A DNA stretch of 32,000 bases, taken from contig NZ_CP042911.1 of assembly GCF_008065095.1 (NCBI RefSeq), positions 2,310,001 through 2,342,000 of the forward strand, written 5' to 3'. Position numbers and translations under genes: made by a program. Of this stretch, positions 8,874-27,477 are shown in pieces. This DNA comes from Gemmata obscuriglobus (lineage in GTDB: Bacteria; Planctomycetota; Planctomycetia; Gemmatales; Gemmataceae). The number at the start of each line of letters is the position of its first letter. Positions within the stretch are counted from its first letter, which is position 1. Under the pieces are notes generated by a model. It had not been told where the DNA came from and did not search any database. It saw only the letters and a list, made by a program, of their open reading frames with translations.

Positions 8874-9097
8874 CGGAACCCGCACGACGGAGTACGCAAC
8901 ACTTGTAACCGTAACTCATGAACTGCAAAGCGCAAGCGGGAAACGGTTTCTGGGGCCAACTGCGCCGAGCCGTTCGGCCGACCGTCCCGTCGCCGGGGCC
9001 GGCCGGCTCGCTAAGACATGAGAACCTCTCCCGGCCCTCCGCGACGGCTCGCGGTTCGGTACACTTCTCAGCACGCACCAGTCGGGAGATTGTTTCA

Positions 9098-12000: not shown

Positions 12001-12772
12001 CAACGAGTTTAAGTTCGGCAAGTACGAGCGGGTGAAGATCACGCTGAAGGACGGGTTCGTGCTGGAAGGCGCGATCACCTACCCGCCGGACTTCGACCCG
12101 AAGAAGAAGTACCCGGTCTGGCTGTTCACCTACGCCGGGCCGCACAGCCCCACGCTGCGCGACGAGTTCGGCGGCGGGCGCGTCATGGAGCAGTCCCTCG
12201 GTACCTCCGGCATCATCACCTTTCGGGTAGACCCCCGGAGCGCGAGCGGGAAGGGGGCGAAGTCCGCGTGGGCGTGCTACAAGCAACTCGGCGTGCAGGA
12301 ACTCAAGGACCTGGAAGAGGCGGTGGCGTGGCTCGCGGAGAAGCCGTACATCGACGCCAAGCGGGTCGGCATCAGCGGGCACAGCTACGGCGGGTTCATG
12401 GCCGCGTACGCGCTGACCCACTCCAAAACCTTCAGCGCGGGGATCGCATCGGGGCCGGTGACGGACTGGAAGCTGTACGATTCTATCTACACCGAGCGCT
12501 ACATGCTCACCCCGAAGGAGAACCCGGAGGGGTACGCGAAATCGAGTTGTGTGGCCGCGGCGAAGAACCTTGCCGGGAAGCTCCTCATCGTTCACGGGAT
12601 GATGGACGACAACGTCCACATGCAGAACAGCGTGCAACTTGTGGACGCGCTTCAGCGGGCCGGGAAGGACTTCGAGCTGATGCTGTACCCGCAAGCCCGG
12701 CACGGGATCGGCGGCGGGCACTACTCGCGGCTGCAACTCGACTTCATTCGCCGAGCGATGAAGGAGAAGTAA
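9098..12772 (+). CDS. Secreted fusion protein: N-terminal M14 zinc carboxypeptidase domain plus C-terminal S9B dipeptidyl-peptidase IV domain
   Basis: Starts at ATG 9098, preceded by GGGAG, with the signal peptide MTRTLALLAALAAPAAARAQA. M14 motifs: HAGE (9392..9403), NADGNE, DLNRDF, DCHTTNGS. DPP4 motifs: DWVYEEEIF, YWWSPDGKQLAFLRFDD, GHSYGG (Ser codon 12383..12385), HGMMDDNVH, ARHGI. Confidence 0.85.
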   Translation: MTRTLALLAALAAPAAARAQALQTVAEKTDYKATSRGADVVAFCEAVAKRGPVARLDYFGASHEGRKLPYLVLSHERIATPEDAKKSGKLVALAFANIHAGEVDGKEALLALARDLTDRTDHPLLKNLVLVLVPNLNADGNEKIDPKNRLGDNGPIEGAGTRANAQKLDLNRDFVKLESPEIRALIKLVNEWNPAVVIDCHTTNGSKHRFKLTYDGPRYPSSSDLAKWADGTLFPEVTKKVKDATGFDIAPYGNFSPDRTRWETYPATPRYSIQYFALCGRLGILSESYSYATFKERIDATRAFVTACLEVVAENRKGVAKLVALEKPARVAVRTKTEAFPEKLQVLGFEEIEKDGKRVVTAAHKAYHLDYAGRVAPTEFADLPFAYLVPADCTAAVETLQRHGIQVEELREDVDLDAERMLVTSVEKAGQSQSATVTSVVGRWDRETHRVPAGTIVVKTGQPLGALAGYLLDPRSEDGLTTWGQLPVGGTQTHFPVLRLPAAVPLALGAAPKLPEARRTNQPITDAQLTGRGGMSAFGFSGTPLTTGAWIDGEHFLQVKDGVLLKVKARTGKGEPFTDPAKIKSSLDAIKGLDNATRDRLAKGTSFRTSPDRAAFLFDIGPDIGIGYFDGNPGARLTKSDGAKEHVTFSPDGKRVAFVRGANLFAVSVEKPLEEHKLTADGGGEVFNAKGDWVYEEEIFNRNGKAYWWSPDGKQLAFLRFDDAPVKKFNLVDLQPVGGRLESYAYPKPGDPNPLVKVGVVSADGGKPTFLDLGGYKPEETLISRVGWVGKSGTVFAYVQNRTQTWLDFVVWDSPTAKPKTLFRETTQAWVDDAGEPRWLPDGTFLFLSERTGWKHLYHYSAEGKLLAAVTQGDWEVKDVLRVDAKEKTVYFSAALTSPTGTDLCRVTFGSDTELLTEKGKTHRVSLALEGELFVDRFSDPMTPTQSNLYEVGKGVVRKLDTNPVRERNEFKFGKYERVKITLKDGFVLEGAITYPPDFDPKKKYPVWLFTYAGPHSPTLRDEFGGGRVMEQSLGTSGIITFRVDPRSASGKGAKSAWACYKQLGVQELKDLEEAVAWLAEKPYIDAKRVGISGHSYGGFMAAYALTHSKTFSAGIASGPVTDWKLYDSIYTERYMLTPKENPEGYAKSSCVAAAKNLAGKLLIVHGMMDDNVHMQNSVQLVDALQRAGKDFELMLYPQARHGIGGGHYSRLQLDFIRRAMKEK

Positions 12773-13052
12773 AGTCGGTAGTTTAGGTCGCATGGGCATG
12801 GGGTAGGTGGTTCGGGTAGTCGGCGGGTCGCGTGTTGAACCATGCGGGCCGCCGGCGCTCCCGCGCCAAGCGATCTCGGACAGGTGCTTGGTTCGGTCCG
12901 GTTGGCTGAAGGCGGGCACTTCGCGCGTGGCTGCCACATCCGCGCAAGTCGTTGGGGCGAAACGCCGCGGCGACTGAACCGCGAATAAGTGAAGACAGAG
13001 GGCCGCCGGCGCACATGCAACCGGTAAGGAAACCGTGCGCAGGGAGGAAGCC

Positions 13053-15857
13053 ATGAGGGTAAGCCAAACTGTCTCGTTGGGCCGGGCGGTCGTGGGGGCG
13101 GGGGGCGGGACAGACACCGACCGCGAGTTACTCCGCCGGTTTGCGCGCGACGGCGACCAAACGGCGTTTGAGGCGCTCGTGAGGCGACACGCCGGCATGG
13201 TGCTGGGCGTGTGCCGTCGGTCGCTGCCGACCGTTCAGGACGCCGAAGACGCGTGCCAGGCGACGTTTGTGGTGCTGGCCCGCCGTGCCGCCGCCGTCCG
13301 GTGGAGCGAGTCGGTCGCGAGTTGGCTGTACACCACCGCCCGCCTGGTCGCGCGGAACGCTCGCGTTGCGGCCGCCCGGCGGGTCGAGCGTGAGGCCCGG
13401 GCGGCGGTGCCGGAGGTGGTCGAGCCAGTCGACCGGGTGACCGGGCGCGAGATGTTGGCGGCCCTCGACGCGGCGATCGATCGGTTGCCGCCGGCGTACC
13501 GCGAGCCGCTGGTACTGTGTTACCTAGAGGGGCTGACGCACGATGAGGCGGCGGCCCGGCTGGGCGTGCCGCGGGGCACGGTCGGCACACGGGTGGACCG
13601 CGGGCGAAAGCGGTTGCACGCGGCGCTGGTGCGGGCCGGGCTCGCGCCGACCGCCGGGTTACTGGCTCTCGCGGTCGCGAACCCGGCGTCGGCGCGGCTG
13701 GTCGGGCTGGCCCTCGCGGCGGTGGCGGGGCCGGTGCCGGTCGCGGTCGCGGAGCTGGCGAACGGAATCGCCACGACCGGAACGGCGAAGTCGCTGGTGT
13801 GTGCGCTCGTGGCGTTGGCGTGCGCCTGCGCGCTGGCCGCCGGGCTGGCGTCGGTGGCACCATCGCGTGGGGGCGTGGCCCGACCGACCGCGGCGAAGGG
13901 GGAACCGCCTGTGGTGGCGCCTTCGGCGGCGCGAGTTGAGATCAAGGGGCGGGTGGTCGACGCGAACGACAAACCGCTGCCAGGGGCGAAGCTGTTCCTG
14001 CACTTGGGGCACACGATAGTGCCGGCGCAGCAGGTGGCTGCGGGCGACGACGGCCGCTTCCTGTTCACAATCTCGGGTGACACATTGCCCTTGCTGCTTG
14101 CCACTGCGCCTGGGCAGGGGGTGGGGCGGTGGCCCCTGAACGGGCGCCCGGTGGCGGAGTTCACGCTCCGGCTGACCCCAGACGAGCCGGTCCGCGGGCG
14201 TGTCGTGGACCCGGAGGGCAAACCGGTCGCTGGCGTGTCGGTGTCGGCCCGCGCGCTGTACATGTACCACGGTGAGAAGGATTTCGATCGCTGGTTGAAG
14301 GCGGCACGCGACCCGGATTGTAAGGAGGTGGCGAGAGGCGGTGAGCCGATCTACGGCACAGAGCGTGGATTCACCGGACCGATCGAGCCGGCCACTTCCG
14401 ACCGCGACGGCCGGTTCGAGCTTCGCGGCATCGGCCGCGACCGGGTCGTGGTCCTCCGTGCCTCCAGCCCTACCACCGCCACGCACGAACTGACCGTGGT
14501 GACGCGGAAGGTCGAGCGGTTCACCGCCCGCGCCGACACTGCCATCACCGGCAGCGCAGAGGAGGTCCACGGGTGCGAGCCGGTGGTGGTGGCCGCGCCG
14601 GTGCCGGTCACCACCGGTCGGGTGCTCGACGACGCCACCGGCGAGCCCGTCCCGGGTACCGTGCTGCGGGTCGGTGGGCTGCACGGTTCGTCGAGGCTGG
14701 CGGAACTGATCGCGGTTGCGGGCCGGGACGGGACGTTCGTGCTGCCCGGGCTGCCGCCGGGCGGGCGGCCGCACGCGTTCGTCCTCCCGCCGGGCGACAC
14801 TTTATATCACGCACTCAAGGTGAGCGTCCCCGACGAGCCCGCCGGCCGCGCCGGTTTCGACATCAAGCTGACTCGTGGCGTGCCGGTCACGGTGAAGGTC
14901 GTTGATAAGGTGACCCGCGCGCCGGTAGAGTCGCAGCTCCGGTACGGCGTGTTTCCGGGCGACAATCCGAACCAGAAAGCGGTGCCGAACGTGCGCCACT
15001 TTCACCAGACCGAGCACCCGCGTCGGCCGTACATCTCGTACGAGTCGGAGTTCCGTATCGTCGCATTCCCCGGCAAAGGGATGCTGGCCGTGCAGGTCCC
15101 GGAAGTCGGCGCGTTCGGCGGCGCGTACCTCTGCGGGGTCGGGGCCGGGACGTTCGAGAAGCACCGGCGGGGCGACGAGTTGGTCGGCACGACCGGGGTG
15201 AGCAGAACCTCCGTCCGGGACTGGCACACGTTCGCCGAGATCGACGTGCCGGCCGACGCGAAGTCGTTCGCGGTCACGCTCGAACTGGACCGCGGGTTGA
15301 CGGCGCCGGTCCGGCTGATCGACGCCGACGGGCGACCGGTCGCCGGGGCCGAGAGTTACGGGCTGGTCCACCCGGCCGGGGGCGCGCGGTGGTCCCGGCC
15401 GCTGGCCGACGCGACGCCGACCGCGGTCGCCCTGCGCGCCGGCGAGCAGCGGCGGGTGATGTTCGTGCACACTGACCGCAAACTGGCCGGGTCCGCGGTC
15501 GTGGTCGGCGGGGCGAAGGACCCGGTCGAGGTGCGAATGGTCCCGTGGGGTGAAGTCAAGGGGCGCATCGTGAACGCCGACGGTAAGCCGGTCGACGTCC
15601 GCCTCGATCTCTCTACCGACTTCGTTCGCAAACCAGATCTCAAGTTCGGGTCGACGCCCATCTGGAACCCGGCGATTGCGGGTGTCTACACTGGCGAGGA
15701 CGGGTGCTTCCGCATCACTGGCTTGGTACCCGGCTTGACGTACCGGTGGGGCGTCAACGGGTGGACGGTCGACGCGGCTACGTCCACGGACACGGTCGCG
15801 AAAGGCGGCGAGACGATCGACCTCGGCGAGATCGTGGTGCGCCCCGAACAGCCGTGA
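13053..15857 (+). CDS. ECF (group IV) sigma-70 factor fused to a transmembrane helix and about six carboxypeptidase-regulatory-like beta-sandwich repeats
   Basis: ATG 13053 follows AGGGAGGAAG. Region 2: DQTAFEALVRRHAGMVLGVCRR..DAEDACQATF. Region 4: YREPLVLCYLEGLTHDEAAARLGVPRGTVGTRVDRGRKRL. Transmembrane segment: LVCALVALACACALAAGLASV. Repeats include GRVVDANDKPLPGA, GRVVDPEGKPVAGV, GRVLDDATGEPVPGT, VRLIDADGRPVAGA and GRIVNADGKPV. Confidence 0.8.
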   Translation: MRVSQTVSLGRAVVGAGGGTDTDRELLRRFARDGDQTAFEALVRRHAGMVLGVCRRSLPTVQDAEDACQATFVVLARRAAAVRWSESVASWLYTTARLVARNARVAAARRVEREARAAVPEVVEPVDRVTGREMLAALDAAIDRLPPAYREPLVLCYLEGLTHDEAAARLGVPRGTVGTRVDRGRKRLHAALVRAGLAPTAGLLALAVANPASARLVGLALAAVAGPVPVAVAELANGIATTGTAKSLVCALVALACACALAAGLASVAPSRGGVARPTAAKGEPPVVAPSAARVEIKGRVVDANDKPLPGAKLFLHLGHTIVPAQQVAAGDDGRFLFTISGDTLPLLLATAPGQGVGRWPLNGRPVAEFTLRLTPDEPVRGRVVDPEGKPVAGVSVSARALYMYHGEKDFDRWLKAARDPDCKEVARGGEPIYGTERGFTGPIEPATSDRDGRFELRGIGRDRVVVLRASSPTTATHELTVVTRKVERFTARADTAITGSAEEVHGCEPVVVAAPVPVTTGRVLDDATGEPVPGTVLRVGGLHGSSRLAELIAVAGRDGTFVLPGLPPGGRPHAFVLPPGDTLYHALKVSVPDEPAGRAGFDIKLTRGVPVTVKVVDKVTRAPVESQLRYGVFPGDNPNQKAVPNVRHFHQTEHPRRPYISYESEFRIVAFPGKGMLAVQVPEVGAFGGAYLCGVGAGTFEKHRRGDELVGTTGVSRTSVRDWHTFAEIDVPADAKSFAVTLELDRGLTAPVRLIDADGRPVAGAESYGLVHPAGGARWSRPLADATPTAVALRAGEQRRVMFVHTDRKLAGSAVVVGGAKDPVEVRMVPWGEVKGRIVNADGKPVDVRLDLSTDFVRKPDLKFGSTPIWNPAIAGVYTGEDGCFRITGLVPGLTYRWGVNGWTVDAATSTDTVAKGGETIDLGEIVVRPEQP

Positions 15858-15997: not shown

Positions 15998-18373
15998 CTA
16001 CGAAAACACACACACGCCGTCGCACCAGTCGGCTGCGATTACCTTCCCGTCTGTGATCGGGTTCGCGAGCAGCCATCGGGCGAGAGGGGCAACCACCTCG
16101 CGCTCGATCGCGCGCTGGAGCGGTCGTGCCCCGTACCGCGGGTCAAATCCCACCTCGGCGAGACGCTCCACCAGTCGCTCCGACCACCGCACCGCGGCCC
16201 CGCTGCGCACCAGCCCCTCGCGGGCGGCGATGGACTCCAACTCGCGCCGGGTGATGGCCCGCACGGACGCCGGGAGCAGTGACCGGAACGTGACTACGGC
16301 GTCCATCCGGTTGAAGAACTCCGGGCGGAAGAACTTCATCGCGGCGTCCTGGTACCGCACCCCCGAATCCGCACCGAACCCCACCGCGCGCGACTGCCCG
16401 GCCCCGAGGTTCGAGGTCATGATGATGATCGTGCTGCGGAAGTTGGTGACGCGGCCGTACTGGTCCGTGAGCCGGCCTTCATCGAACACGCCCATGAGCG
16501 TGTCGAACACGTCCGCAGCCGCCTTCTCGATCTCGTCCAACAGCAGCACGCTGAACGGCTGCTGGCGCACCCGCTTCACCAACTCGCCGGGCTCGCCGCG
16601 GGGCGGCCCGAGCAGCCGGTACACCGCGTCGAACCCGCCGTACTCGCTCATGTCCAGCCGGATCAACCGCCGGTCCCGTGCGGAATGCGGAATTCGGGAT
16701 TCGGAATGCGGAGAGGCGGTACCGCTGCTTCGTTGGTTTTCCTGCTGCAATTCCGCATTCCGAATTCCGCGTTCCGAATTACTTCCCCCGTGTCCGAAGA
16801 AGTAGTCGGCGAGCGCCTGGGCCATGTGCGTTTTGCCGACCCCCGTCGGACCGCAGAACAGCATCACCGCGGGCGGGCGGTTCGGGTCGTTCAGCCCCGC
16901 CTTCACGGTCATCACGACGTTGGTGGCGGCCTCGCACGCCTCCGGCTGGTCGATGACGCGCGCCCGGAACCAGCTCCGCACGTCGTCGCGCTGGAGCGTG
17001 ATCTCGTCGCGCAGGAACAGCTCCGGTAGCCCGGTCTGCCGGCGGAACCGGTCCACCACCGCGGTCGGGGTGACCGGCTTCTTGCCGTCGCGGACGTGTT
17101 CGTCTACCAACTGTCGCGCGAACCCGGACGCGGGGCCGGGGAACGCCGCGTAGGGCATGAACCGCCGGAACAGGCGGACGATGCGCTCGCCGGTCCCGCG
17201 CTCGACCTCTACCCCGGGACCGCTCGCGGACGCGTCGAGCTGCCGGTCGATGACCGACAGCGCGGTGGCACGGTCGAACGGTTCGACGCGGACGATCTGG
17301 AACAGGTCCGGTAGCCCGGGCATGAGCCGGTGGCACGCGTCCAACTCCGCGGGCGTTACCTCGGCGATCATGCGCAGTTCGCCGCGGGCGAGGTACGGGA
17401 CCAGGAACGCCGCGATGCTGTCGGTGGGGCCGAGCCCGCCGGTGCGCACGAGTTCCAGCAGCCGCTCCGCGCACAGGACGCCGTTGATTTCGCCCAGTTC
17501 CGCAATCAGCGACTCGACGCGCTCCTCCCACTGCCCGAGGTACCGCATCCCGGCGACGATGCGGCCGGCGGACGTGAGCCAGAACTTCCGCTTCTGCGGC
17601 CGCGGTTCGTCGGCGTCGCGAGAGCGGTTGGTGTCGGCGAGGGCTTTCTTCTCGGCCTCCCGGACGGCGTCGACCATGAGCGTGGTTTTGCCGACGCCCG
17701 CCTCGCCCAGGAGCAGCACGTTGGCCTTTTCGTGGTGCAGCTTGCGGACGAGCGCGGCGAGGTCGGCTTCGCGGCCCCAGGCGCGGGCGTAGCCCTTGCG
17801 CACCGCGCGGTCGCCGACCGGTTCGGCCACCTTCGCCAGCGTGGGCGGCGGGGGTACCGTGAGCGGGCCGCCTGGCGGTTCCTTCGGAACGGGAACGACG
17901 AGCTCGAGCAGCTCGGCCTCGACCGGCGGCAGGTACGCGCCCACCTCTTCCGGCGTCAGCCCTTCGAGCTTCTGCGAGACGTACCGCTCGACGAGCTTTT
18001 CGAGTTCGGTCCCGTTGGGGTAGTCGAACCGGAGCCCGAGCAGCGGCAGGTCCGCGGCGAACTGACCGCTCTTGCGGGTGCCGACGACGCACGGCACCCG
18101 CACCGGCACCTCGGCGTCCGTGGGGTACAGCCGGTTCTTCCCCTTGTACTCGGGCCGCACGTTGACGGTGAACCAGCGCAGCTCGGGCTCGCCGAAGTCC
18201 GGCGCCTCGGCGTGCTCGTCCTTGCGGTGCAGCCAGCGCAGGTACTCCTTGAGGTCGTCGCGGGCGTCGTTGGCGGTCTTGCCGAACCCGGTGGTGCCGA
18301 GGTCCAGCGCGATCGCGGAGTGCCCGCCGGCGGCGTCGCGACAGAGCAGGGCGTGGTAGCGTGCGGTGGGCAT
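15998..18373 (-). CDS. Clp/Hsp100-like double-AAA+ ATPase, paralog A (791 aa, no C-terminal extension)
   Basis: Starts at ATG 18373 (MPTARYHALL). D1 P-loop: LLLGEAGVGKTT. D1 small-domain motif: RFMPYAAFPGPA (compare the ClpA/B LPDKAID motif). D2 motifs: FCGPTGVGKT, LLLDEIEKA, MTSNLG, FRPEFFNRMD, GARPLQRAI. There is no ClpB-type M-domain. Confidence 0.85.
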   Translation of the reverse strand: MPTARYHALLCRDAAGGHSAIALDLGTTGFGKTANDARDDLKEYLRWLHRKDEHAEAPDFGEPELRWFTVNVRPEYKGKNRLYPTDAEVPVRVPCVVGTRKSGQFAADLPLLGLRFDYPNGTELEKLVERYVSQKLEGLTPEEVGAYLPPVEAELLELVVPVPKEPPGGPLTVPPPPTLAKVAEPVGDRAVRKGYARAWGREADLAALVRKLHHEKANVLLLGEAGVGKTTLMVDAVREAEKKALADTNRSRDADEPRPQKRKFWLTSAGRIVAGMRYLGQWEERVESLIAELGEINGVLCAERLLELVRTGGLGPTDSIAAFLVPYLARGELRMIAEVTPAELDACHRLMPGLPDLFQIVRVEPFDRATALSVIDRQLDASASGPGVEVERGTGERIVRLFRRFMPYAAFPGPASGFARQLVDEHVRDGKKPVTPTAVVDRFRRQTGLPELFLRDEITLQRDDVRSWFRARVIDQPEACEAATNVVMTVKAGLNDPNRPPAVMLFCGPTGVGKTHMAQALADYFFGHGGSNSERGIRNAELQQENQRSSGTASPHSESRIPHSARDRRLIRLDMSEYGGFDAVYRLLGPPRGEPGELVKRVRQQPFSVLLLDEIEKAAADVFDTLMGVFDEGRLTDQYGRVTNFRSTIIIMTSNLGAGQSRAVGFGADSGVRYQDAAMKFFRPEFFNRMDAVVTFRSLLPASVRAITRRELESIAAREGLVRSGAAVRWSERLVERLAEVGFDPRYGARPLQRAIEREVVAPLARWLLANPITDGKVIAADWCDGVCVFS
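16679..16783. repeat. 105-bp palindromic element made of inverted heptamer arrays, inserted in frame in paralog A
   Basis: Left arm: five tandem heptamers gcggaat/gcggaat/tcgggat/tcggaat/gcggaga. Right arm: the inverse array caattcc/gcattcc/gaattcc/gcgttcc/gaattac. It encodes SNSERGIRNAELQQENQRSSGTASPHSESRIPHSA, which is absent at the same site in paralogs B and C. It is visibly less GC-rich than the flanking sequence. Confidence 0.7.
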
Positions 18374-18465: not shown

Positions 18466-21400
18466 TTACTTGGTTGCCCGCGGCAGTGCGGCGAGCGTGA
18501 AGGTGCGGAACACGTCGGCGAACTCGGCCCGCGACGGCAGCGGCGAGACGAGCCCGGTGCGCAGGTCCGCGACCGGTTGGCCGTCGGCGTACACGCGCAG
18601 GATCGGGCCGAACGCGAACGGGTCCGGCACCGCGCCGAGCCACCCGTCGAGCACGTCCACGCGCACCGGCACCGGGCCGCCGTGCTTCGGCAGGAACAGG
18701 TGCGTTCCGGCCTCGGCCTGTGCCAGTGCGCGGGCGTGGAGCCCCTTCAATCGCAGGGCGAGCGTTCCACGCTGTTCGGACGCGATCGGAACGTTTTCCA
18801 GTTCCAGCCCCAACCCGTGCGCCCAGACGCGCAGGTACCAGCCGTGCAGCGCGGCCGCGCCGGGGCACGCTTCGCCCTCGGGGAACCCGCGGATCAGCAG
18901 GTACACCGGCCTCTCATCGACCGGCGCCGACACCATCAGGTTCAGCAGCGCGAGCCGGTTCTCCAGGTCGAACACGTCCTGGTCGTCGGGCAGCGGTTCG
19001 GACCCCTCGAATAGCTCGCGGAGCGCCCCTTGCATGTCTTCCGACGACATCACCGAACGGAGCGGTTGGTCCCGCTCGTGCCAACCCTCACCGCGGCCCG
19101 AGCTGAGAGAGTAACGGTTGATCTTGATCGCGCGGTAACGGGCGCGGCGCCCGGTCGATTCGGGCTGGGAGGCTTCGAGGTACGAGTTGCGCCGGGCTTC
19201 GAGCCGGGCCTCGTAGGCGTCGAGTGTGCCGGCGATGGCGTCGGCCAGTTCCTTGAGCGCGAAGTAGCGCTCGTGGTCGCGCGTCACCCGCCCGGCGGTC
19301 AGTACGGTCCCCGGGCGAATGGCGTCGAGCACCGCGTCCACCTTGTCGAGCGCGTCCCATGCGGCCGATAGGCGGTCCCGGAGCGGCCGGGCGGCGCGCT
19401 CGTCGAGCGGGAGCTTGGCCGCCCATTCCGGTGCCTGCACATCAACGGCCAGTGTGCCGGCCGCGGCGCGCACCGTTACGATCGTGAGGTCGTTCACCGC
19501 GAGTGCCGCGAGCCGAGAGGCCGCGGGCTGAGTCAGTTCGTGCTCCACCGCGCGTTTCATGGCGCGGGCGCCGAGTGCAGGGTCGTAGCCCGCCTGGATG
19601 ACGCGGTCCAGCGCGTCGGGGGCGACGTTCAGCACACACTTCCGCTGGCTAAAGCCCTCGCGGGCGAGCACCTCACCCACCAGCCGCCGGGCGATCCGCG
19701 CCATCTCCTCGCGCGACAGCTTGCGGAACGGGATCACCCGGTCCAGGCGGTTGAAGAACTCGGGCCGGAAGAACTTCTCCGCCGCCCGCGTGTACGCGAA
19801 CGACCGGTCCGCTTCGGTCACGAACCCGAGGTTCCCTTCGGCGTCGCGTACGCCGAGGTTCGAGGTCATGAGGACGAGCGCGGAGGTGAAGTCCGCGGTG
19901 CGGCCGAGCGAGTCCGTCAGCCGCCCCTCGCCCAGCAGTTGCAGGAGCAGGTCGAACACCTCGGGATCGGCCTTTTCGATCTCGTCCAGCAGCACCACCG
20001 CGAACGGCTGGCGCCGGATCGCGCTCGTGAGCAGCCCTTCGGGTTGCTGGAACGTGCCCACGAGCCGCGCCGCGGCGCCGGGCTGGTTGTACTCGTTCAG
20101 GTCGAAGCGCAGCAGCCGATCAGAATCGCCGAACAGCGTGCGCGCGATGGCCTTGGCGCACTCCGTCTTGCCGACGCCCGTGGGGCCGAGGAACAGGAAC
20201 GCCGCGAGCGGCCGGTCCGGGTCGTTCAGCCGCGCCTTGGCGACGCTCACCACGTCGGCGAGGGCGTCCACCGCGTCGGGCTGGCCGATCACCTGCTCTT
20301 GAAGCTTGTCCCGGACTGCGTCGCGGTCCAGCCGCTGCTTCGGGTCGAGGAACGCGAGCGACAGCCCGCTCCGGGCGGCGAAGTCGTTCAGCACGTCGTC
20401 GCGGGTGATCTCGGGGCGCGGCGGGAACTCGTACCCGTCGGCCGGGCGCGTCGCGCTGGACCCGACCTCCGCGGCGCGTTCGTCGGGGTTCGTGGTGGCG
20501 CGCACCGCCAGGCGCGTCAGCACCGCGGCGGCCTTCCCCGGGAACGCGGCGGTGCGGTCGTAGCGGCGTTGCTGGTCGATGACCGCGGGCAGCACGTCGA
20601 GCCCGAACACGCAGGCGTGCTTGCCTTCGAGTCGCCGCTGCTGGTCCACCAGGACGCGGAGCGTGTCGGCGTCGGTCGGCTGGCGCACCGGGATGATGTG
20701 GAACAGGTCGCTGAGCCCGCGGTCCCGCTCCTGGAGCACGCGCAGGCTCTCGGGGGTGATCTCGGCGAGCACCCGCACGTCGCGCCGTTCGAGGTACGGT
20801 TTCAGGACCACCGCGGCACTGAGCGACGACTGGCTCGTGACGCCGGCGAGGAACAGGCCGAGCAGGTCGTCGAAGTAGAGCACGTGGTCGCGCTTCTTGG
20901 CGTGCTTCAGGATCGCGAGCAGCCGGCCCTCCCACTGGCCCACGTAGGACATGCCCGAGATGAGCCGCTGTGGCGACACCAGCCACGTGTTGAACCACTG
21001 CCGCTGGTTCGCCTTGCGCTCCGCGACGCGGCGGTACACGCACTCGTGGACGATGGCGGATTTGCCGACGAGGCGGGGGCCGCACAGCAGCACGGGGCGC
21101 CGGTCGCCCAGCTCCAGGAGCCGGTGGAGTTCGTTCACCTCGCGGTCGCGCAGCACGGCGCGGTCGAGTTCGTCGGGGTACAGCCAGTCGAGGCACCGGC
21201 CGACGCGACGCAGCTCGGTGGCGCCGTCCCCCGTTTCCCCGCCGCCGAGCGACAGGAAGTTGGCGGGCGGCTTCTTCGGCACCACCGCGGGCACGCTGGC
21301 GCTCAGGTCCAGCACCTGGACCCACGCCTTGCCCGACAGGGAGCCGAGTTCGGGGCGCACCTCCTCGTCAACGTCGGCGTCGCGTTCGACCCCGCGCCAG

Positions 21401-21792
21401 TGCTCCGTGTAAACCGCCTGTGCGCGGTCCTCCAGGGGCTCGCCGCGGGGCACCTCGAACCACAACTCGGGCACCGCGGGCGTGAACGCGAGCCGGCGGC
21501 CGAGGTGGTCGAACGCCAGCACGAGGTACTTGGTGCGCGCGACCCGGCGCCGCAGCTCGACATCGACGGTGGTGCGGTGCGCGGTGACGGCCGGGCAGAA
21601 CGCCCAGGCCGCGAGTTCGTCGTGCCGCTCCTTGCGGCCGAGCGCTTCGAGGTGCTCGACCAGCTCCCGGGTGAGCTTCGTGAGCAGCCGGTTGAGGTTC
21701 CCGTCGGTGCGCTCGGGGCCGCCGAAGAACAGCGGGCGCGCGGTGTACCCGTTCTTGTGCTGGAAGACGTAAATCGGGACGCGGAAGTTCAT
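18466..21792 (-). CDS. Clp/Hsp100-like double-AAA+ ATPase, paralog B (1108 aa) with a release-factor-like C-terminal extension
   Basis: Starts at ATG 21792 (MNFRVPIYVF). D1 P-loop: LLCGPRLVGKS. D1 Walker B-like motif: VLYFDDL. D2 motifs: FLGPTGVGKTE, VLLDEIEKA, MTSNLG, FRPEFFNRLD, GARAMKRAV. About 320 aa follow the D2 small domain. Confidence 0.85.
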   Translation of the reverse strand: MNFRVPIYVFQHKNGYTARPLFFGGPERTDGNLNRLLTKLTRELVEHLEALGRKERHDELAAWAFCPAVTAHRTTVDVELRRRVARTKYLVLAFDHLGRRLAFTPAVPELWFEVPRGEPLEDRAQAVYTEHWRGVERDADVDEEVRPELGSLSGKAWVQVLDLSASVPAVVPKKPPANFLSLGGGETGDGATELRRVGRCLDWLYPDELDRAVLRDREVNELHRLLELGDRRPVLLCGPRLVGKSAIVHECVYRRVAERKANQRQWFNTWLVSPQRLISGMSYVGQWEGRLLAILKHAKKRDHVLYFDDLLGLFLAGVTSQSSLSAAVVLKPYLERRDVRVLAEITPESLRVLQERDRGLSDLFHIIPVRQPTDADTLRVLVDQQRRLEGKHACVFGLDVLPAVIDQQRRYDRTAAFPGKAAAVLTRLAVRATTNPDERAAEVGSSATRPADGYEFPPRPEITRDDVLNDFAARSGLSLAFLDPKQRLDRDAVRDKLQEQVIGQPDAVDALADVVSVAKARLNDPDRPLAAFLFLGPTGVGKTECAKAIARTLFGDSDRLLRFDLNEYNQPGAAARLVGTFQQPEGLLTSAIRRQPFAVVLLDEIEKADPEVFDLLLQLLGEGRLTDSLGRTADFTSALVLMTSNLGVRDAEGNLGFVTEADRSFAYTRAAEKFFRPEFFNRLDRVIPFRKLSREEMARIARRLVGEVLAREGFSQRKCVLNVAPDALDRVIQAGYDPALGARAMKRAVEHELTQPAASRLAALAVNDLTIVTVRAAAGTLAVDVQAPEWAAKLPLDERAARPLRDRLSAAWDALDKVDAVLDAIRPGTVLTAGRVTRDHERYFALKELADAIAGTLDAYEARLEARRNSYLEASQPESTGRRARYRAIKINRYSLSSGRGEGWHERDQPLRSVMSSEDMQGALRELFEGSEPLPDDQDVFDLENRLALLNLMVSAPVDERPVYLLIRGFPEGEACPGAAALHGWYLRVWAHGLGLELENVPIASEQRGTLALRLKGLHARALAQAEAGTHLFLPKHGGPVPVRVDVLDGWLGAVPDPFAFGPILRVYADGQPVADLRTGLVSPLPSRAEFADVFRTFTLAALPRATK

Positions 21793-21872
21793 GGCGAAAA
21801 AGGCCCATTCCCGATGCTTCAGTGCCAACAAGCGACACCGCTAACCCGCAGCGAGTTCGGCGCGCGGTGCGT

Positions 21873-22057
21873 GGACCTAACCCCCCGGCCCCCTTCCCTG
21901 AAGGGAAGGGGGTGAACGCGGGTAATGCCTCCTTGGAACCGTTTAACGGTCCGGTGTGGCCCGCGTCGAAATACGACTCACGCCACACGGCTGCGCAGGA
22001 GGCGTTGCCCGCGTTCACCCCCTTCCCTTCAGGGAAGGGGGCCGGGGGGGTAGGTCC
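21873..22057. repeat. 185-bp element with 60-bp terminal inverted repeats (MITE-like or structured RNA) between paralogs C and B
   Basis: The left arm (21873..21932) is ggacctaaccccccggcccccttccctgaagggaagggggtgaacgcgggtaatgcctcc. It equals the reverse complement of the right arm (21998..22057) except for 3 mismatches. Each arm contains its own 10-bp hairpin (cccccttccc / gggaaggggg). The 65-bp centre holds further small palindromes, accgtttaacggt and ccggtgtggc..gccacacgg. Confidence 0.7.
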
Positions 22058-22063
22058 TCCCCC

Positions 22064-25000
22064 CTACTCCGAGATCATCTTGAGCAGCGTGGACCGCACG
22101 TTCGCCGCCAGCGCCGGCGCCAGCCACCGGTCGAAGCCGCCGTACACGTTCGACCACACGCGCTCGACCACCGCGTCGTGCATCTCGCCGGTGCCGAAGT
22201 CGTACTGCCGGCGCACCGGCTCGTCGCTGAACCAGCCGCGGCGAACGACCGTCTCCGGCGGCAGGTACTCGCGCGCTGGGCCGCTGCTCGCCCGCACCAT
22301 CACGTCCGGGCCGTCGCCGGTTTTGTCGTCGGGCCGTTTGATCTCGTGCCGCCCGGTTTCGCCCCAGAACCGTAGTTGCGCGCCCACGCCGCCGATTTCC
22401 AGAACGAGGCCGATGGTGCCGGCGGTTGTGTCGGGGGCGTGTTCTGCCGGCGCCACCGCGACCCGCTTGAACAACAGCTTCTCCGGGTCCCTGAAAAAGT
22501 AGTTGTCGTTCACCCACACCGTTTTCGGCAGGTTCGGGTCCGCTGCACGGCCGAGCGGGGCGCGCTCGGGCGGCGTCGCGGGCGGGTCGTTCGGGGCCGG
22601 CAACGCGTAGCGGAACACACGCACCGTCATCCCGTGCTCGTGCGCGATCGCGCGGTAGGCGGCGGCCATCTCCGCGAGGTTCCCGCGGTGCTCGGAGAAC
22701 AGCGCGAGTGTGACGCGATCCCCCTCCGGTGCGCTCAAGGCGTACAACCGAAGGAGCAACTTGTCCCAGGCGCGGTTCGCTTCGTCGAGCCGCTCCTGAA
22801 TCTCCCGGGCGGGCGGTTCCGCCGTTTCGTGGAACGCGATCACGGTGGCGTCCTCGAGCGCGAACGCGGCGTCCCGCTGGCGCGCGACCTCGTCGGCCAG
22901 TTCCCGGAGCCGGCCGAGCTTCGCCAGCGCCTCGGCCTCCGCGCCGCTGATCTTCTTCTTTGCGGCCTGCCTCTTGAGGATGCGGACCTCTTGCTGCGCG
23001 AGCTGGTACACCTCGTTGTTCAGCTCGCGCACCGCGGACGACGCGGCCAGCACCTGGTGCCACCGGCGCATCACCTGCGCGCCGGCCGCGAGCTTCCCGC
23101 TCGGCCCGGACGGCTCACGCGCCGATTTCGCCCGCGCCCCCTGAAGGGCGCGCACGGCGACGATCGGCACGCCGTCCGCCACGCCCACCTCAACGGCCAG
23201 CGGCACGTTGCCGGCGTGCCGGTTCATCTGCCGGGCGAGCGGCGCGAGCAGCTCGCGCTCCATCGCCCGCTTCAGCGGGCGCGCGCCGTACCGCGGGTCG
23301 TAACCGACCGCCGCCAGGTGGTCCAGCAGCGCCGGGTCCGTCGCGAGCGACAGGTCACGGAACCGCACCCCGTCGCGGCCCTGCACCTTGTGCCACTCGC
23401 GGTCCGTGATGCCGCGGATCACCTCCGGCCCGAGCGGCGCGAAGGGCACGATCCGGTCGAGCCGGTTGAACATCTCGGGCCGCAGGAACTGCTCCACCGC
23501 CCGCGCGAAGTGCTCCTGCGATTCGGTTTTCCCGACCGCGCCGGTCAGGAACCCGGACGAGCCGCGGCGGAACGAGTCCGCGCCCAGGTTCGACGTGAGG
23601 ATGACGACGGTGTTGCGGAAGTCCGCGAGCCGGCCGCCGGCGTCCGTGAGGCGCGCCTCGCCGAGCGCCTGGAGCAGCAGATCGAAGAACGAGTGGTCCG
23701 CCTTTTCCACCTCATCAAGGAGCAGCACCGCGAACGGCTGCTCGCGCACCCTCGCGGTGAGCAGCCCCTCGCTCCCGAACGCCCCGCCGACGAGCCGGCG
23801 CACCGACACCGGGTCGGCGTACTCGCTCATATCGAACCGCGTGAGCCGGTCCTTCGAGCCGAACAGGAACTCCGCCACCGCCTTCGCCATCTCGGTCTTG
23901 CCGACGCCCGTCGGGCCGATGAACAGCAGCGACGCGATGGGCCGGTTGGGGCGCGTCAGCCCCGCCTTCACGGTGGCGAGCAGGTCCGTCACCAAGCTCA
24001 CGGCGTCGGGCTGGCCGATCACGCGCCGGGCGAACCAGTCGTGCGTGGCCGCCAGGTCGAGGGGCACCGACGGGTCCAGGACGGCGCGCGGCAGCCCGGT
24101 TTCGCGCGTGAACGCATCGTACACCTCGGTTTCGGTGATCGGCTCGCCCTTGGCGCCGTCGCGGATCAGGTTTTCGAGGAACCGGAGCGGCCGGCCCGGG
24201 TACGCGGAGTACGTCGCGTACCGGCGGTGGAGGCGGTCCGTTGCGGCGAGCGCGGCCGGCTCGGTCACGCGGCGGGCGTTGTCGCGTGCGAAGCTCGCGA
24301 GGATCGCGCGCCCCTTGGCGGTGCCGGGCTCCTCGACCGTGATGTGCCGGAACGCGTCGAGCAACTGCGGGTCCAGCTTCTCGATGAGCGGCAGTTGCTC
24401 GGGGGTGCATTCCGCGACGCACAGCAGCTCGCCGCGGCCGATCGCCGGGCGCAGGAACGTGGCGAGGCCGGACGAGTTGTGCTCGCTCTTGCCCACCTCG
24501 AGCAGTTCCACCAGGGGGCCGAAGTGGATCACGGCCTTGCGCTTCGTCGCGTCCTTGATGAGGTCCTGGCACCGCTCCTGCCACATGCCGAACCCGGTCT
24601 GGCCGGCGACGACCCGCGCGCCGCTGGTCTGGAAGACCGGGGCACGCGCCGACGCGCGCCAGCGGCGGGCGAGTTCGCGCACCGCGGCCGTTTTGCCGAC
24701 CCCGCTCGGGCCGATCAGCAGGACGCTTTGCGTCGGGTTGCCCGTCAGCGCGCGGGTGAGTTCCGAGACCGTCTCATCGGCCTCGTAGGTCTTTTCGTCG
24801 TCGCGCCCGAGAAGTGTGGCGATCTGTTGCAGCAGCGTGAGCTTTCCGTCCTGCTGATCGGTTTCGGCGCGGATCGCGCGGTCCTTGAGGGTCGGGATGC
24901 GGACGGCGAGCGCGTGGGACTCCACGGCGAACCCGAGCGTGGTCTGAACGCCGGCGACCGACTTCAGGTTCACCGACAGGTTCAACCGCCGCAGCGCCGC

Positions 25001-25468
25001 CAGCGTGTCCTTCTGGAGCAACCGCACGAGGTTGTCGGCCGGGTCCGCGATCACCTCGATCCCGAGTTCCAGAACACGCGCCAGGGTGTAGCCCTTGAAT
25101 TGGGGCGCGCTGGGGCCGAACGGCGCTCCGTCTGGGTCGGAGGGGCTGTCCGAGGCGCTCTGATCCCACACCGCGGCGTGGAACGTGAGCAGCAGCGGGT
25201 CGCGCCAAGCTTCGTTCGTGCGCGGCGGGGACAGTTCCAGCGTGAACGTGAGTTCTCGTGCCGCCCGGGAGCGGCGCCGCCGGAGCAGCGTTTCGGGATC
25301 GAGTTTGGGAATCAGCTCAGTGAGGTTTCGCCGCGCGGCCGTACCCGCAAGGGCGCGGTTCGCCCCGAGGCGAGCGAGTTCGGGGAAGAACAGCGGTTCC
25401 GCCAGCACCGCCCCGGGGCCGAGCTTGCGCAGGGCGAGGGAAACGGGGAACTCGATCTCAACCGCCAT
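22064..25468 (-). CDS. Clp/Hsp100-like double-AAA+ ATPase, paralog C (1134 aa) with a release-factor-like C-terminal extension
   Basis: Starts at ATG 25468 (MAVEIEFPVS). D1 P-loop: LLIGPSGVGKT. D2 motifs: FIGPTGVGKTE, LLLDEVEKA, LTSNLG, LRPEMFNRLD, GARPLKRAM. About 360 aa follow the D2 small domain. Confidence 0.85.
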   Translation of the reverse strand: MAVEIEFPVSLALRKLGPGAVLAEPLFFPELARLGANRALAGTAARRNLTELIPKLDPETLLRRRRSRAARELTFTLELSPPRTNEAWRDPLLLTFHAAVWDQSASDSPSDPDGAPFGPSAPQFKGYTLARVLELGIEVIADPADNLVRLLQKDTLAALRRLNLSVNLKSVAGVQTTLGFAVESHALAVRIPTLKDRAIRAETDQQDGKLTLLQQIATLLGRDDEKTYEADETVSELTRALTGNPTQSVLLIGPSGVGKTAAVRELARRWRASARAPVFQTSGARVVAGQTGFGMWQERCQDLIKDATKRKAVIHFGPLVELLEVGKSEHNSSGLATFLRPAIGRGELLCVAECTPEQLPLIEKLDPQLLDAFRHITVEEPGTAKGRAILASFARDNARRVTEPAALAATDRLHRRYATYSAYPGRPLRFLENLIRDGAKGEPITETEVYDAFTRETGLPRAVLDPSVPLDLAATHDWFARRVIGQPDAVSLVTDLLATVKAGLTRPNRPIASLLFIGPTGVGKTEMAKAVAEFLFGSKDRLTRFDMSEYADPVSVRRLVGGAFGSEGLLTARVREQPFAVLLLDEVEKADHSFFDLLLQALGEARLTDAGGRLADFRNTVVILTSNLGADSFRRGSSGFLTGAVGKTESQEHFARAVEQFLRPEMFNRLDRIVPFAPLGPEVIRGITDREWHKVQGRDGVRFRDLSLATDPALLDHLAAVGYDPRYGARPLKRAMERELLAPLARQMNRHAGNVPLAVEVGVADGVPIVAVRALQGARAKSAREPSGPSGKLAAGAQVMRRWHQVLAASSAVRELNNEVYQLAQQEVRILKRQAAKKKISGAEAEALAKLGRLRELADEVARQRDAAFALEDATVIAFHETAEPPAREIQERLDEANRAWDKLLLRLYALSAPEGDRVTLALFSEHRGNLAEMAAAYRAIAHEHGMTVRVFRYALPAPNDPPATPPERAPLGRAADPNLPKTVWVNDNYFFRDPEKLLFKRVAVAPAEHAPDTTAGTIGLVLEIGGVGAQLRFWGETGRHEIKRPDDKTGDGPDVMVRASSGPAREYLPPETVVRRGWFSDEPVRRQYDFGTGEMHDAVVERVWSNVYGGFDRWLAPALAANVRSTLLKMISE

Positions 25469-25630
25469 GAACGCTCCCGGAACAGGATCGCACAGTGTGA
25501 CGCATCGGGACAGAGGGGGCAAGTGGGTGCCCGGTTCGGTGCGCCGGATCGGAACAAACGCGCGCCGAATTTGTTCCAATTCGTGTATGTGGTACGGGCC
25601 GAGCGGCTACTGAATGGGTAGGAGGGGGCC

Positions 25631-27250
25631 ATGTCGCACCGCACCGCCCGTTTCGTCGCAGCACTCGTTCCCGAGCGCGAATTGCCGACCGATGCGGAAC
25701 TGCTCGCTCGGTTCGCCGCCGGGCGCGACGCCGGCGCGTTCGAACTGTTGGTCTGGCGCCACGCCGGGCTTGTGCTTCGCGTGTGCCGCGCGGCCCTCCG
25801 CGACCGGCACGCCGCGGAGGACGCCGCTCAAGCCGTGTTTTTGGCCCTGGCCCGTCAGGCCGGCTCGGTCGGTCGGTCCGGGACCGCCGCCGGCTGGCTG
25901 TTTCGGGTGTCGCGTCGGGTGTCTGCTCGGGCGGCGCGGCGCCGAGTCGCGGTTCCTGTGCCAGCTTCCGATCTCGACGCGCTCCCCGCGCCTGACGCTC
26001 CTGAACCGGACCGTGACGCCGAACGCGCGGTTCAGGAGGAGGTCGCGCGGCTGCCGGAATCGCATCGGGCGCCGGTGCTTCTGTGCTTCTTTGAAGGGCT
26101 GACCCACGCCGAAGCGGCCCGGCGGCTCGGTGTTCCCGTCGGCACCGTGGCGGGGCGGATCGCGCGGGCCAAAGAGGTTCTGGCCGTCCGGCTGAGGCGG
26201 CGCGGCCTCTCGCTCGCCGTTCTCCCTTCAGCCGGTGTTCTGATCGTTCCGGCGTTCGTGTCGGCCACCGCCCACATCGCAATCACCTTTGCGGCGGAAG
26301 GCCGCGTCGGTGTGCCCGGCCCCGTTCTCGAACTCGTCAATCAGGAGTTGCGCGTGATGGCCCTCAAGAGAGTGCTCGGCGGCGCTGCCGCGCTCGTGCT
26401 GGTCGTGGCTGGTGCGTGCCTGAGCTTCGGGATGAGCGGGCCGCCCGAACCACCCGCCGCGCCTACCCCGGCCCCGCACGTGGCGGCCGAAAAGCCGCCT
26501 GCTCCGAAGGTGCCGGCTCCGGTGATCGGCAAGGCGTTCGCTATCGCCCCGATCACCACCGACCTCCAGCGTCAGCTCATTCGCGGCGCCGGGGCCGACT
26601 CAGCGGTGCTTCTGATTGTGGACGCGCAAACGCTGCTAAAGGACGATAAGACACTCGATGTCGGCGCCCTTCAGCTCGCCGAGATGCGGAAGGGCCTACG
26701 AGCATTCCGGCGAGCGAAAGGCCAATCTGTCGCCCACAGCGCGGTTCACTATCCGTTCGGTCGCGAAATATCAGGTGACAGCGCGGACGCGCTCGATTTC
26801 GTGCTCGCCGGTGCGGCGCGCGCTGAAGAGTTCGCTCCGGTTACGCCGCTCGGATACCACACCGTACACAACCAGGCGTTCGATTTCGTCAAGTACATCA
26901 GCCCACTGAAGGAGAAGGCGGCGGGCGACACGGCCGAGGTTGGCGTGGGTGACGAGCGGGTGGTTGCGTACCCGGTGCGAACGCCGCTCAGTCAGGTGTT
27001 GACCGGCTCGGTCAGCGGAGTGCTCATCGTAAAAACGCCGGTCATGTGCCAGGGGGACGTGTGGCAGGCGGACGGCTTGGGGGCATCGGTCCGGGGCACA
27101 CTCGAAAAGCTGAAGCTGGCCAAGGGCAGTCGGGTCTACTTCTCGCTGAACGTGCAAGGGCGGAACCCCAAGGCGACCGACCAACTGCGGCTCGACTGTG
27201 CGGAGTGGGCGAAAGACGCCGGATTAGAGTTGTGGCAGACCAGCTATTAA
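25631..27250 (+). CDS. ECF sigma-70 factor fused to a transmembrane helix and an uncharacterised ~270-aa C-terminal domain
   Basis: ATG 25631 is preceded by GGAGGGGG. Region 2: DAGAFELLVWRHAGLVLRVCR..AAEDAAQAVF. Region 4: HRAPVLLCFFEGLTHAEAARRLGVPVGTVAGRIARAKEVL. Transmembrane segment: VLGGAAALVLVVAGACLSFG. It is a paralog of the 13053 sigma gene in its sigma part. Confidence 0.8.
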   Translation: MSHRTARFVAALVPERELPTDAELLARFAAGRDAGAFELLVWRHAGLVLRVCRAALRDRHAAEDAAQAVFLALARQAGSVGRSGTAAGWLFRVSRRVSARAARRRVAVPVPASDLDALPAPDAPEPDRDAERAVQEEVARLPESHRAPVLLCFFEGLTHAEAARRLGVPVGTVAGRIARAKEVLAVRLRRRGLSLAVLPSAGVLIVPAFVSATAHIAITFAAEGRVGVPGPVLELVNQELRVMALKRVLGGAAALVLVVAGACLSFGMSGPPEPPAAPTPAPHVAAEKPPAPKVPAPVIGKAFAIAPITTDLQRQLIRGAGADSAVLLIVDAQTLLKDDKTLDVGALQLAEMRKGLRAFRRAKGQSVAHSAVHYPFGREISGDSADALDFVLAGAARAEEFAPVTPLGYHTVHNQAFDFVKYISPLKEKAAGDTAEVGVGDERVVAYPVRTPLSQVLTGSVSGVLIVKTPVMCQGDVWQADGLGASVRGTLEKLKLAKGSRVYFSLNVQGRNPKATDQLRLDCAEWAKDAGLELWQTSY

Positions 27251-27265
27251 GTGACAGCCCGCGTG

Positions 27266-27365
27266 TTTGTCTTTGTTCTTGTGGCACAGACATTCCTGTC
27301 TGTGCGACTTTAAACCTCGTTGCCGCACAGACAGGAATGTCTGTGCCACAAGAAACAAAGACAAA
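27266..27365. repeat. REP-like long palindrome, family copy 1
   Basis: Arms of 41 and 42 bp differ by a single T indel: tttgtctttgttcttgtggcacagacattcctgtctgtgcg pairs with cgcacagacaggaatgtctgtgccacaagaaacaaagacaaa, with a 17-nt loop. The core cacagaca-ttcc-tgtctgtg is itself a hairpin. It lies 16 bp after the sigma gene stop. Confidence 0.75.
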
Positions 27366-27477
27366 GAGGAGTTCGGTCTGCTTCTGGCGTATCGCCGGAC
27401 CCAGCCGGGCCAATCCGTTTCGGCCGCTCGTTCGTCGTACCCGTGTGGCGCGTTTCACCTCCCGGGAGTCATCTCCG

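Follow-up and report, generated by a model that had tools for sequence, protein, structure and literature searches.

The C-terminal ~320 amino acids (aa) of a Clp-like ATPase of Gemmata obscuriglobus are a real, diverged homologue of the bacterial class-I release factors (RFs). The protein, which we call paralog B, is encoded in a 32,000-nucleotide stretch of the genome (assembly GCF_008065095.1, contig NZ_CP042911.1, positions 2,310,001 to 2,342,000), hereafter the window, within which all positions below are numbered; its RF-like part lies at 18469-19434 on the minus strand. B is one of three tandem minus-strand genes of the window, designated A, B, and C. Our analyses show that the tail of B, and also that of A, retains RF domain 1 and the domain 2/4 superdomain, that the GGQ domain 3 and the stop-codon readers are lost, and that the RF-like module is obligatorily fused to an atypical Clp-type ATPase. 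Coding genes in the window, which has ~69% G+C, were called with a codon-position G+C filter together with a listing of the open reading frames (ORFs). The three genes are as follows.

22064-25468, minus: paralog A, 1134 aa, with the architecture of B (Pfam)
18466-21792, minus: paralog B, 1108 aa (translation, Pfam)
15998-18373, minus: paralog C, 791 aa, a double AAA+ protein like A and B, without the RF-like tail (Pfam)

The ATG start of B is confirmed by the N-termini of 20 orthologues, in which MNFR[IV]P is kept. Its layout comprises an N-domain unrelated to Clp_N, a degenerate first AAA+ module (D1), a second module (D2) with a canonical ATPase, a D2-small domain, and the RF-like tail. Pfam places AAA_2 at residues 527-685 (E=8e-39) and ClpB_D2-small at residues 692-770. 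The tail comprises the 338 aa beyond the end of D2-small (residue 770), of which the last 322 codons correspond to 18469-19434.

A release-factor-derived tail without the GGQ domain

A sequence-only reading of this DNA had aligned the tail by hand with Escherichia coli RF2 and RF1. The B peptides that it quoted all occur in B, and the strings that it gave for RF2 all occur in the E. coli protein. It had also proposed that the Pfam families PCRF and RF-1 be searched, and the outcome depends on whether a single sequence or the family is used. With the single sequence, the B tail has no match in Pfam (even at E<=1) or in NCBIfam, none in PADLOC, and only noise in a phmmer search of PDB. It does not reach the gathering threshold of PF03462 (PCRF), a family that is touched in the Pfam scan by one of 32 relatives (E=0.0094), and PF00472 (RF-1, the GGQ domain) matches neither the tail nor any of these relatives. 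Since Pfam and NCBIfam miss the RF-like module, databases name these proteins just after their ATPase (AAA family ATPase or ClpA/ClpC).

Searches with family profiles are significant. A word-indexed protein search gave 38 close relatives of the B tail, whose alignment retains RGFPxG, W..GLG.E, KG.HAR.LA..E.GTHL, and D.RTG. When a profile of 19 orthologues was compared with all PDB sequences, RF2 was the sole borderline match (E=0.014), in the register proposed by the sequence-only reading, with an additional weak collinear piece, over DLRTG, that aligns with RF2 319-360. We then searched 1.84 billion cluster representatives with a hidden Markov model (HMM) and found at least 334 relatives (50%-identity clusters, E<=1e-3), many of which are ~1100 aa long and carry the tail at ~750-1100. 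A more diverse profile was made of 32 tail sequences with identity down to 20%. Among 177,635 PDB sequences it matched 14, all of them RF1 or RF2 (E=1.1e-7 to 8.6e-4), the first non-RF match being at E=0.46. Positions 77-253 of this profile align with RF1 residues 3-178, which cover domain 1 and, as far as E-S-G-V-H, domain 2. A word-indexed protein search with the diverse profile added little to the set of relatives. The comparison by hhalign of 107 tails with E. coli RF1 and RF2 (E=8.9e-6, probability 83%) gives one collinear alignment that spans RF2 residues 4-363 and has a single large gap, over domain 3.

The predicted fold agrees with the profiles. An AlphaFold2 model of the B tail, built from the orthologue alignment, has a predicted local distance difference test score (pLDDT) of 76 overall and of 85-94 in the alpha/beta part. 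The 50 best matches of this model in PDB according to Foldseek are all RF1, RF2, mtRF1, or PrfH, with a best E of 1.1e-7 (PrfH: 9mor_A, E=5e-3). The domain-2/4 chain of RF2 (5u4j_v) matches the model with a template modelling score of 0.53 normalised to the target and a root-mean-square deviation of 3.9 Å over 103 columns. Identity between tail and RFs in these structural alignments is just ~15-20%. The order of elements described in the sequence-only reading (a helical domain 1, the alpha/beta part of domain 2, and the domain-4 strand with DLRTG) is thus recovered by profile, hhalign, and Foldseek, and the superposition of a predicted model on RFs, which it had proposed as a check, succeeds. 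The features of the tail are these.

18928-19407, minus: RF domain-1-like helical region, B residues 796-955 (AlphaFold2, profile, hhalign)
18643-18927, minus: RF domain-2-like alpha/beta part, B residues 956-1050 (pLDDT, HMM alignment, Foldseek)
18700-18714, minus: EAGTH motif, counterpart of E-[ST]-G-[VG]-H in RFs (alignment of tails)
18676-18693, minus: LPKHGG loop, located where RFs have the longer SPF/PxT loop for codon recognition (alignment)
18604-18642, minus: junction at the insertion point of RF domain 3 (GGQ), WLGAVPDPFAFGP (hhalign gap of ~95 residues)
18469-18606, minus: RF domain-4-like end, with the strand ILRVY, DLRTG (18553-18567), and a C-terminal helix (HMM, hhalign)

In the domain-1-like region, the model has helices at tail residues 34-55, 68-104, 144-161, and 165-185, and profile positions 77-176 align with residues 3-99 of Thermus thermophilus RF1. 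The region holds a low-confidence, poorly conserved insert (tail residues 108-165). The domain-2-like part contains RGFPEG...W..GLGLE, KGLHARALAQAEAGTHLF, the LPKHGG loop, and the VPVRVDV strand. Within EAGTH, E257 and G259 are invariant and H261 is nearly so in the 32 diverse tails, and E.G.H is found in 99 of the 107. The loop that follows is more variable: P265, H267, and G268 do not vary among close orthologues, and among 99 diverse tails a proline stands at +4 after the motif histidine in 49, a histidine at +6 in 49, and the strict P-x-H in 39. The register of this loop relative to SPF/PxT is ambiguous in hhalign. The tripeptides themselves are not kept in the tails, LPKHGG standing in their place, as had been noticed from the sequence, and the RGFPEG tip of alpha5 (G-G-x-E in RFs) is conserved in close orthologues only. 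Without SPF/PxT and without a conserved GG.E at the alpha5 tip, the tail would not read stop codons.

Domain 3 is missing altogether. Between the VPVRVDV and ILRVY strands, B has the ~12 residues (WLGAVPDPFAFG) reported by the sequence-only reading, against ~95 in RF2. Most relatives have ~35 extra residues at this junction (~45 in total), predicted to be helical by consensus, in which a vestige of alpha7, the long helix of RFs, may survive. There is no GGQ at the junction in B or in the 107 relatives examined. The spacing from E.G.H to D.RTG is of 46-84 residues (median 74) in the diverse tails with both motifs, compared with 140 in E. coli RF2. With domain 3 and its GGQ gone, the tail would be unable to hydrolyse peptidyl-tRNA.

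Within the junction the resemblance resumes. Its DPFAFGP part aligns with RF2's switch loop (DIGWGSQ, with Trp319), and the family form, DPxx[L/F]GP, is conserved, with an aromatic or hydrophobic residue at the position of Trp319. In RF2, the switch loop comprises aa 315-323, just before the R-x-Y strand, and Trp319 stacks on A1492 (PMC5378476). In the domain-4-like end, D306, R308, T309, and G310 are invariant in orthologues, and D.R[TS]G is found in 90 of the 107 tails. The B tail thus has in common with RF2 the E-x-G-x-H motif, the R-x-Y of the domain-4 strand, and D-L-R-T-G. The identity of DLRTG with the E. coli RF2 string is exact, as had been claimed, and the motif matches do not vanish among orthologues: E.G.H, the strand R.Y, and D.RTG are retained down to ~22% identity. 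Because the tail fails the catalytic and codon-reading features that define an RF, we regard it as RF-derived and not as an RF.

The sequence-only reading had missed that paralog A carries a homologous tail. This tail is RF-like, lacks the GGQ domain, and has a Pro-rich insert inside domain 2. It and its motifs are listed here.

22067-23203, minus: RF-like tail of A, ~380 aa
22682-22714, minus: VTLALFSEHRG motif of the A tail
22340-22363, minus: GETGRHEI motif of the A tail
22175-22213, minus: RRQYDFGTGEMHD motif of the A tail

The relation of the two tails is visible at the profile level only. BLASTP and hhalign with shallow alignments give no significant match between the A tail and the B tail, and the A tail escapes the profile made of close orthologues of B. 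When 19 A tails from genome loci were compared with the B tails, hhalign found a probability of 96% and E=3.8e-9 over 300 columns. The profile of A tails has no RF match in PDB, and its hhalign match to E. coli RFs is weak (E=0.0064, probability 6%). The AlphaFold2 model of the A tail is poor (pLDDT 54), and its 24 best Foldseek matches belong without exception to RF1, RF2, or mtRF1 (best E=1.5e-5). Since the direct profile matches failed or were weak, the assignment of the A tail to the RFs draws on the Foldseek result for a low-confidence model and on the homology to B.

The fusion to the ATPase is systematic, in that every tail match that extends N-terminally enters ClpB_D2-small or the D2 domain AAA_2. 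RF1 and RF2 have homologous domains 1 and 2/4 in the same order as the B tail; they are free-standing proteins, whereas the RF-like tail is the C-terminal part of an AAA+ protein of 1100 aa. PrfH (RFH) and ArfB/ICT1 are likewise class-I RF derivatives that have shed parts, act independently of stop codons, and are used in ribosome rescue. PrfH lacks domain 1 and keeps the GGQ domain, and ArfB keeps the GGQ, or peptidyl-tRNA hydrolase (PH), domain only (PMC6514570). The tail described here is the reverse of both, with domains 1, 2, and 4 kept and GGQ lost. A 2019 survey of RF diversity lists only RF1, RF2, ArfB, and PrfH, with no PH-less version, and mentions AAA+ proteins only in the connection between Vms1 and Cdc48 (PMC6514570). 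We found no description of a fusion between a Clp or AAA+ protein and an RF in the full-text literature searched, so that, as far as these searches and the survey reach, the fusion is unreported, as the sequence-only reading had supposed. We regard it as a new architecture built of known kinds, an RF-derived tail on a Clp-like motor.

The Clp-like motor and its operon

The motors of A, B, and C are double AAA+ ATPases similar to ClpA and ClpB. B aligns along residues 185-715 of ClpA in NCBIfam. None of the three reaches the equivalog cut-offs of ClpA, ClpB, ClpV, ClpG, or ClpK, the best scores being of 332 bits against a cut-off of 1232 (ClpB) and of 323 against 993 (ClpA). PADLOC matches to DolB and PDC-M37B are confined to the AAA+ core, and a reading as a defence system was hence dropped. 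Three positions of the motor are of particular relevance.

20860-20883, minus: D1 Walker B, VLYFDDLL, with DD for DE (alignment with ClpA/ClpB)
20035-20058, minus: shortened D2 pore loop, GTFQQPEG (alignment with ClpA, ClpB)
19819-19833, minus: NLGFV, of the pattern hydrophobic-Gly-Phe, opposite the IGL ClpP-docking loop of ClpA (alignment with E. coli ClpA)

The motor retains the D1 P-loop, a pore-loop-like Y-V-G motif in D1, the D2 Walker A and B (DE), and the sensor GAR. B shares with ClpA and ClpC the two AAA+ modules, D2-small, the canonical D2 Walker A and B, and the sensor GAR. At the IGL position B has LGF, C has VGF, and A has SGF, and [LIVAM]-G-[FLY] is found in nearly all of the 40 full-length relatives. 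The conserved LGF/VGF motif suggests a possible coupling with ClpP.

Other parts of ClpA and ClpB have no counterpart. No Clp_N domain is matched by Pfam, and the columns of the M-domain of ClpB are gaps in the alignment, this domain being absent from all three motors. ClpA, ClpC, and ClpB, for their part, lack the RF-like C-terminal extension of 340-380 aa and the three tandem paralogues seen here. As the host fails several defining features of ClpA and ClpB, we call it Clp-like and assign it to neither. N-domains of ~205 aa stand in place of Clp_N in A, B, and C; that of B (21178-21792, minus) is highly conserved (MNFRIPIYV..., ELRRVGRCLDWLY). These N-domains have no detectable relatives in Pfam, their profile gave only spurious homeodomain matches in PDB (E ~0.1), and the mutual similarity of the three is marginal.

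The gene order A-B-C is seen in many of 27 Gemmataceae loci (Gemmata, Frigoriglobus, Urbifossiella, and one metagenome-assembled genome labelled Singulisphaera), the best related locus being that of Gemmata algarum JC673 (86-100% amino-acid identity). A few Gemmataceae loci have B and C with no detectable A upstream; the Zavarzinella locus yielded A and B but not C. Metagenome-assembled genomes of distant Planctomycetota have A-B-C or A-B with 4-nucleotide overlaps. A-B(-C) is thus a conserved, often overlapping or translationally coupled operon across Planctomycetota. The flanking genes vary from genome to genome, which leaves the operon itself as the unit of conservation, and the gene neighbourhoods that we inspected in the window and in related genomes gave no functional clue.

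The start of C was placed at the ATG at 18373 because the similarity between orthologues begins there. A longer ORF call of 956 aa (to 18868) is an over-extended artefact that overlaps the 3' end of B in another frame. C has a low-complexity insert of ~38 aa directly after the D2 Walker A (GHGGSNSERGIRNAELQQENQRSSGTASPHSESRIPHSARDRR). The spacer between A and B (21793-22063) is ~270 nucleotides long in the window, whereas in most related genomes the two genes overlap by 4 nucleotides or lie less than 15 nucleotides apart. It is filled by a 68-nucleotide inverted repeat (arms 21866-21933 and 21997-22064, 91% complementary, 63 nucleotides apart), each arm of which carries a CCCCTTCCC/GGGAAGGGG mini-hairpin. 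The repeat looks like a lineage-specific insertion, of the kind of miniature inverted-repeat transposable elements or of repetitive extragenic palindromes, or like a structured RNA element.

Upstream of A, and divergent from it, lies a 539-aa ORF (25631-27250, plus) for a sigma factor of the extracytoplasmic function (ECF) type (Sigma70_r2/r4), which overlaps the start of a DUF3160 gene (27046-29760). This sigma gene adjoins the operon solely in this genome and in G. algarum. A minus-strand ORF at 25607-26227, with high G+C at third codon positions and no family, was rejected as a gene and is probably spurious, since the ECF sigma factor occupies the plus strand there. On the other side, a 940-aa protein (13035-15857, plus) is an unusual sigma fusion: an ECF sigma factor (regions 2 and 4) makes up its N-terminal part, and the long extension behind it contains a CarboxypepD_reg-like domain. 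A 1284-aa multi-peptidase fusion (8918-12772, plus) combines an M14 zinc carboxypeptidase, a DPP-IV N-terminal propeller, and an S9 prolyl-oligopeptidase, in this order.

Possible ribosome docking and its alternatives

The explanation that we favour, and to which we give about an even chance, is that of an RF-armed motor tethered to ribosomes by codon-independent docking in the A site; the sequence-only reading had suggested a docking on ribosomes that are stalled or have an empty A site. A, B, and C would assemble into a mixed hexamer whose RF-like arms, catalytically dead and indifferent to the codon, would serve as docking modules for the A site or the decoding centre and hold the motor on ribosomes whose A site is accessible, because they are stalled or vacant or for some other reason. 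The motor would remodel or extract a ribosome-bound polypeptide, with nascent chains, bound factors, and ribosomal proteins as candidates, and probably feed it to ClpP, a step that we propose because the hydrophobic-Gly-Phe loop is conserved. Peptide release by the arm itself would be impossible. The main argument is indirect: the elements kept in the tails are loops and not only core residues, which argues that a decoding-centre-type interaction is still under selection. The RF-specific elements that we take to be under purifying selection are E.G.H, R.Y, D.RTG, DPxx[L/F]GP, and P-x-H. Homology and fold, the obligatory fusion, the A-B(-C) gene order, and LGF/VGF at the IGL position also speak for the proposed machine. 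Ribosome docking of the arms is a plausible hypothesis.

Some known proteins, which are precedents for GGQ-less binding in the A site, offer a functional analogy, and no more than that. Pelota/Dom34 with ABCE1, Vms1 with Cdc48, and Balon are RF-shaped, non-terminating binders of the A site that work with an ATPase or inhibit the ribosome. Vms1 recruits the AAA+ protein Cdc48 (PMC6514570), and Balon, which lacks GGQ, binds the decoding centre in the absence of mRNA through its HP motif (PMC10901736). Pelota, Vms1, and Balon differ from the tails in having the aeRF1-type fold and not that of bacterial RFs; they are separate polypeptides, and none of the ATPases is of the Clp type.

Several observations weigh against a ribosome-tethered motor. 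The SPF/PxT loop and the alpha5 tip, lost or conserved only among close orthologues, are major contacts of RFs with the A-site codon. The motor itself is atypical. D1 has lost its Walker B glutamate, DE being replaced by DD throughout the family of B, by GP in A, and by ER in C, and D2 has lost its GYVG pore loop through a 5-residue deletion that A, B, and C share with all 40 full-length relatives. It is therefore not certain that the motor unfolds processively, and the AAA+ unfoldase that the sequence-only reading had seen in the host is sustained as to its ClpA/B-like double AAA+ and needs qualifying as to unfolding. To judge from the known architecture of ClpA, the tail exits D2-small where the ring faces ClpP, a long way from the entry pore of D1, which makes for an awkward geometry if a ribosome-bound chain is to be threaded directly. 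It is gene order and one single motif that point to the putative hetero-hexamer and to docking on ClpP, and the variable flanking genes have no link to translation.

Some of these points fit an exaptation of the tail away from the ribosome, which we consider rather unlikely and yet the most serious of the alternatives. The tail would act as an oligomerisation or auto-regulatory domain, or as a platform for substrates or adaptors, and its RF ancestry would be mere history. The loss of the codon-reading elements is consistent with it, as are the divergence of the A and B tails, so large that the profile of close B orthologues misses A, the large Pro-rich insert inside domain 2 of A, and a neighbourhood devoid of translation genes. 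At the ClpP-proximal rim, regulatory contacts of the tail would also be plausible. A purely structural role should however preserve the core hydrophobic residues, and conservation falls instead on surface loops specific to RFs, namely D.RTG, P-x-H, and the position of the switch loop. We know of no case in which the domain 2/4 fold of bacterial RFs serves away from the ribosome, which counts against exaptation as well. The 2019 survey reports none (PMC6514570).

The tail might instead be an RF mimic that acts on the termination machinery and does not deliver the motor. It might rival RF1/RF2 at the A site or at the L11 stalk, or capture RF3 by means of the retained domain 1, and so modulate termination or hibernation, with the AAA+ part recycling or removing it. 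We hold this to be improbable. It would account for the retention of domain 1, which contributes to the significant HMM match and which in RFs is the domain that interacts with the stalk and with GTPases (PMC6514570), and Balon shows that GGQ-less proteins with an RF fold can be hibernation factors (PMC10901736). However, a competitive inhibitor hardly needs a double-ring ATPase of the 730-kDa class with six arms, both the obligatory fusion and the operon of three paralogs speak for the motor as the effector, and the domain-1 region has a poorly conserved, low-confidence insert. Finally, that a helical tail rich in Ala, Arg, and Leu should resemble RFs by chance or composition in a genome with 69% G+C is extremely improbable and effectively excluded: single-sequence searches of Pfam, NCBIfam, and PDB (phmmer) were indeed negative and identity to RFs is just ~15-20%, but independent profile and structure searches return RFs exclusively (E ~1e-7), the alignment is collinear over three RF domains, and the motifs are retained across the 107 diverse relatives.

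Ribosome rescue and quality control in bacteria are thought to rely on small free factors (tmRNA-SmpB, ArfA with RF2, ArfB, PrfH-RtcB, and RqcH), with proteases acting downstream on tagged products. Returning to the docking of an RF-armed motor, a motor fused to an A-site-shaped module would, if true, be a new principle for bacteria. It would be a one-polypeptide counterpart of the eukaryotic Vms1-Cdc48 and Pelota-ABCE1 pairs, extracting or degrading ribosome-bound proteins or dismantling ribosomes. Tentatively, and with a chance clearly below even, we propose for Planctomycetes a new ribosome-directed, hetero-oligomeric, and possibly ClpP-coupled motor of the Clp type, with dead RF arms in the A site or decoding centre. 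The module would be the first known derivative of a bacterial-type RF in which the decoding-side domains were kept and the catalytic one discarded. It would also bear on the evolution of RFs by domain insertion. It is conceivable that domain 2/4, here without interruption, retains the form that the codon-recognition domain of RFs had when GGQ was not yet inserted. At least 334 protein clusters labelled as AAA family ATPase or ClpA carry this unannotated RF-like domain, which Pfam misses.

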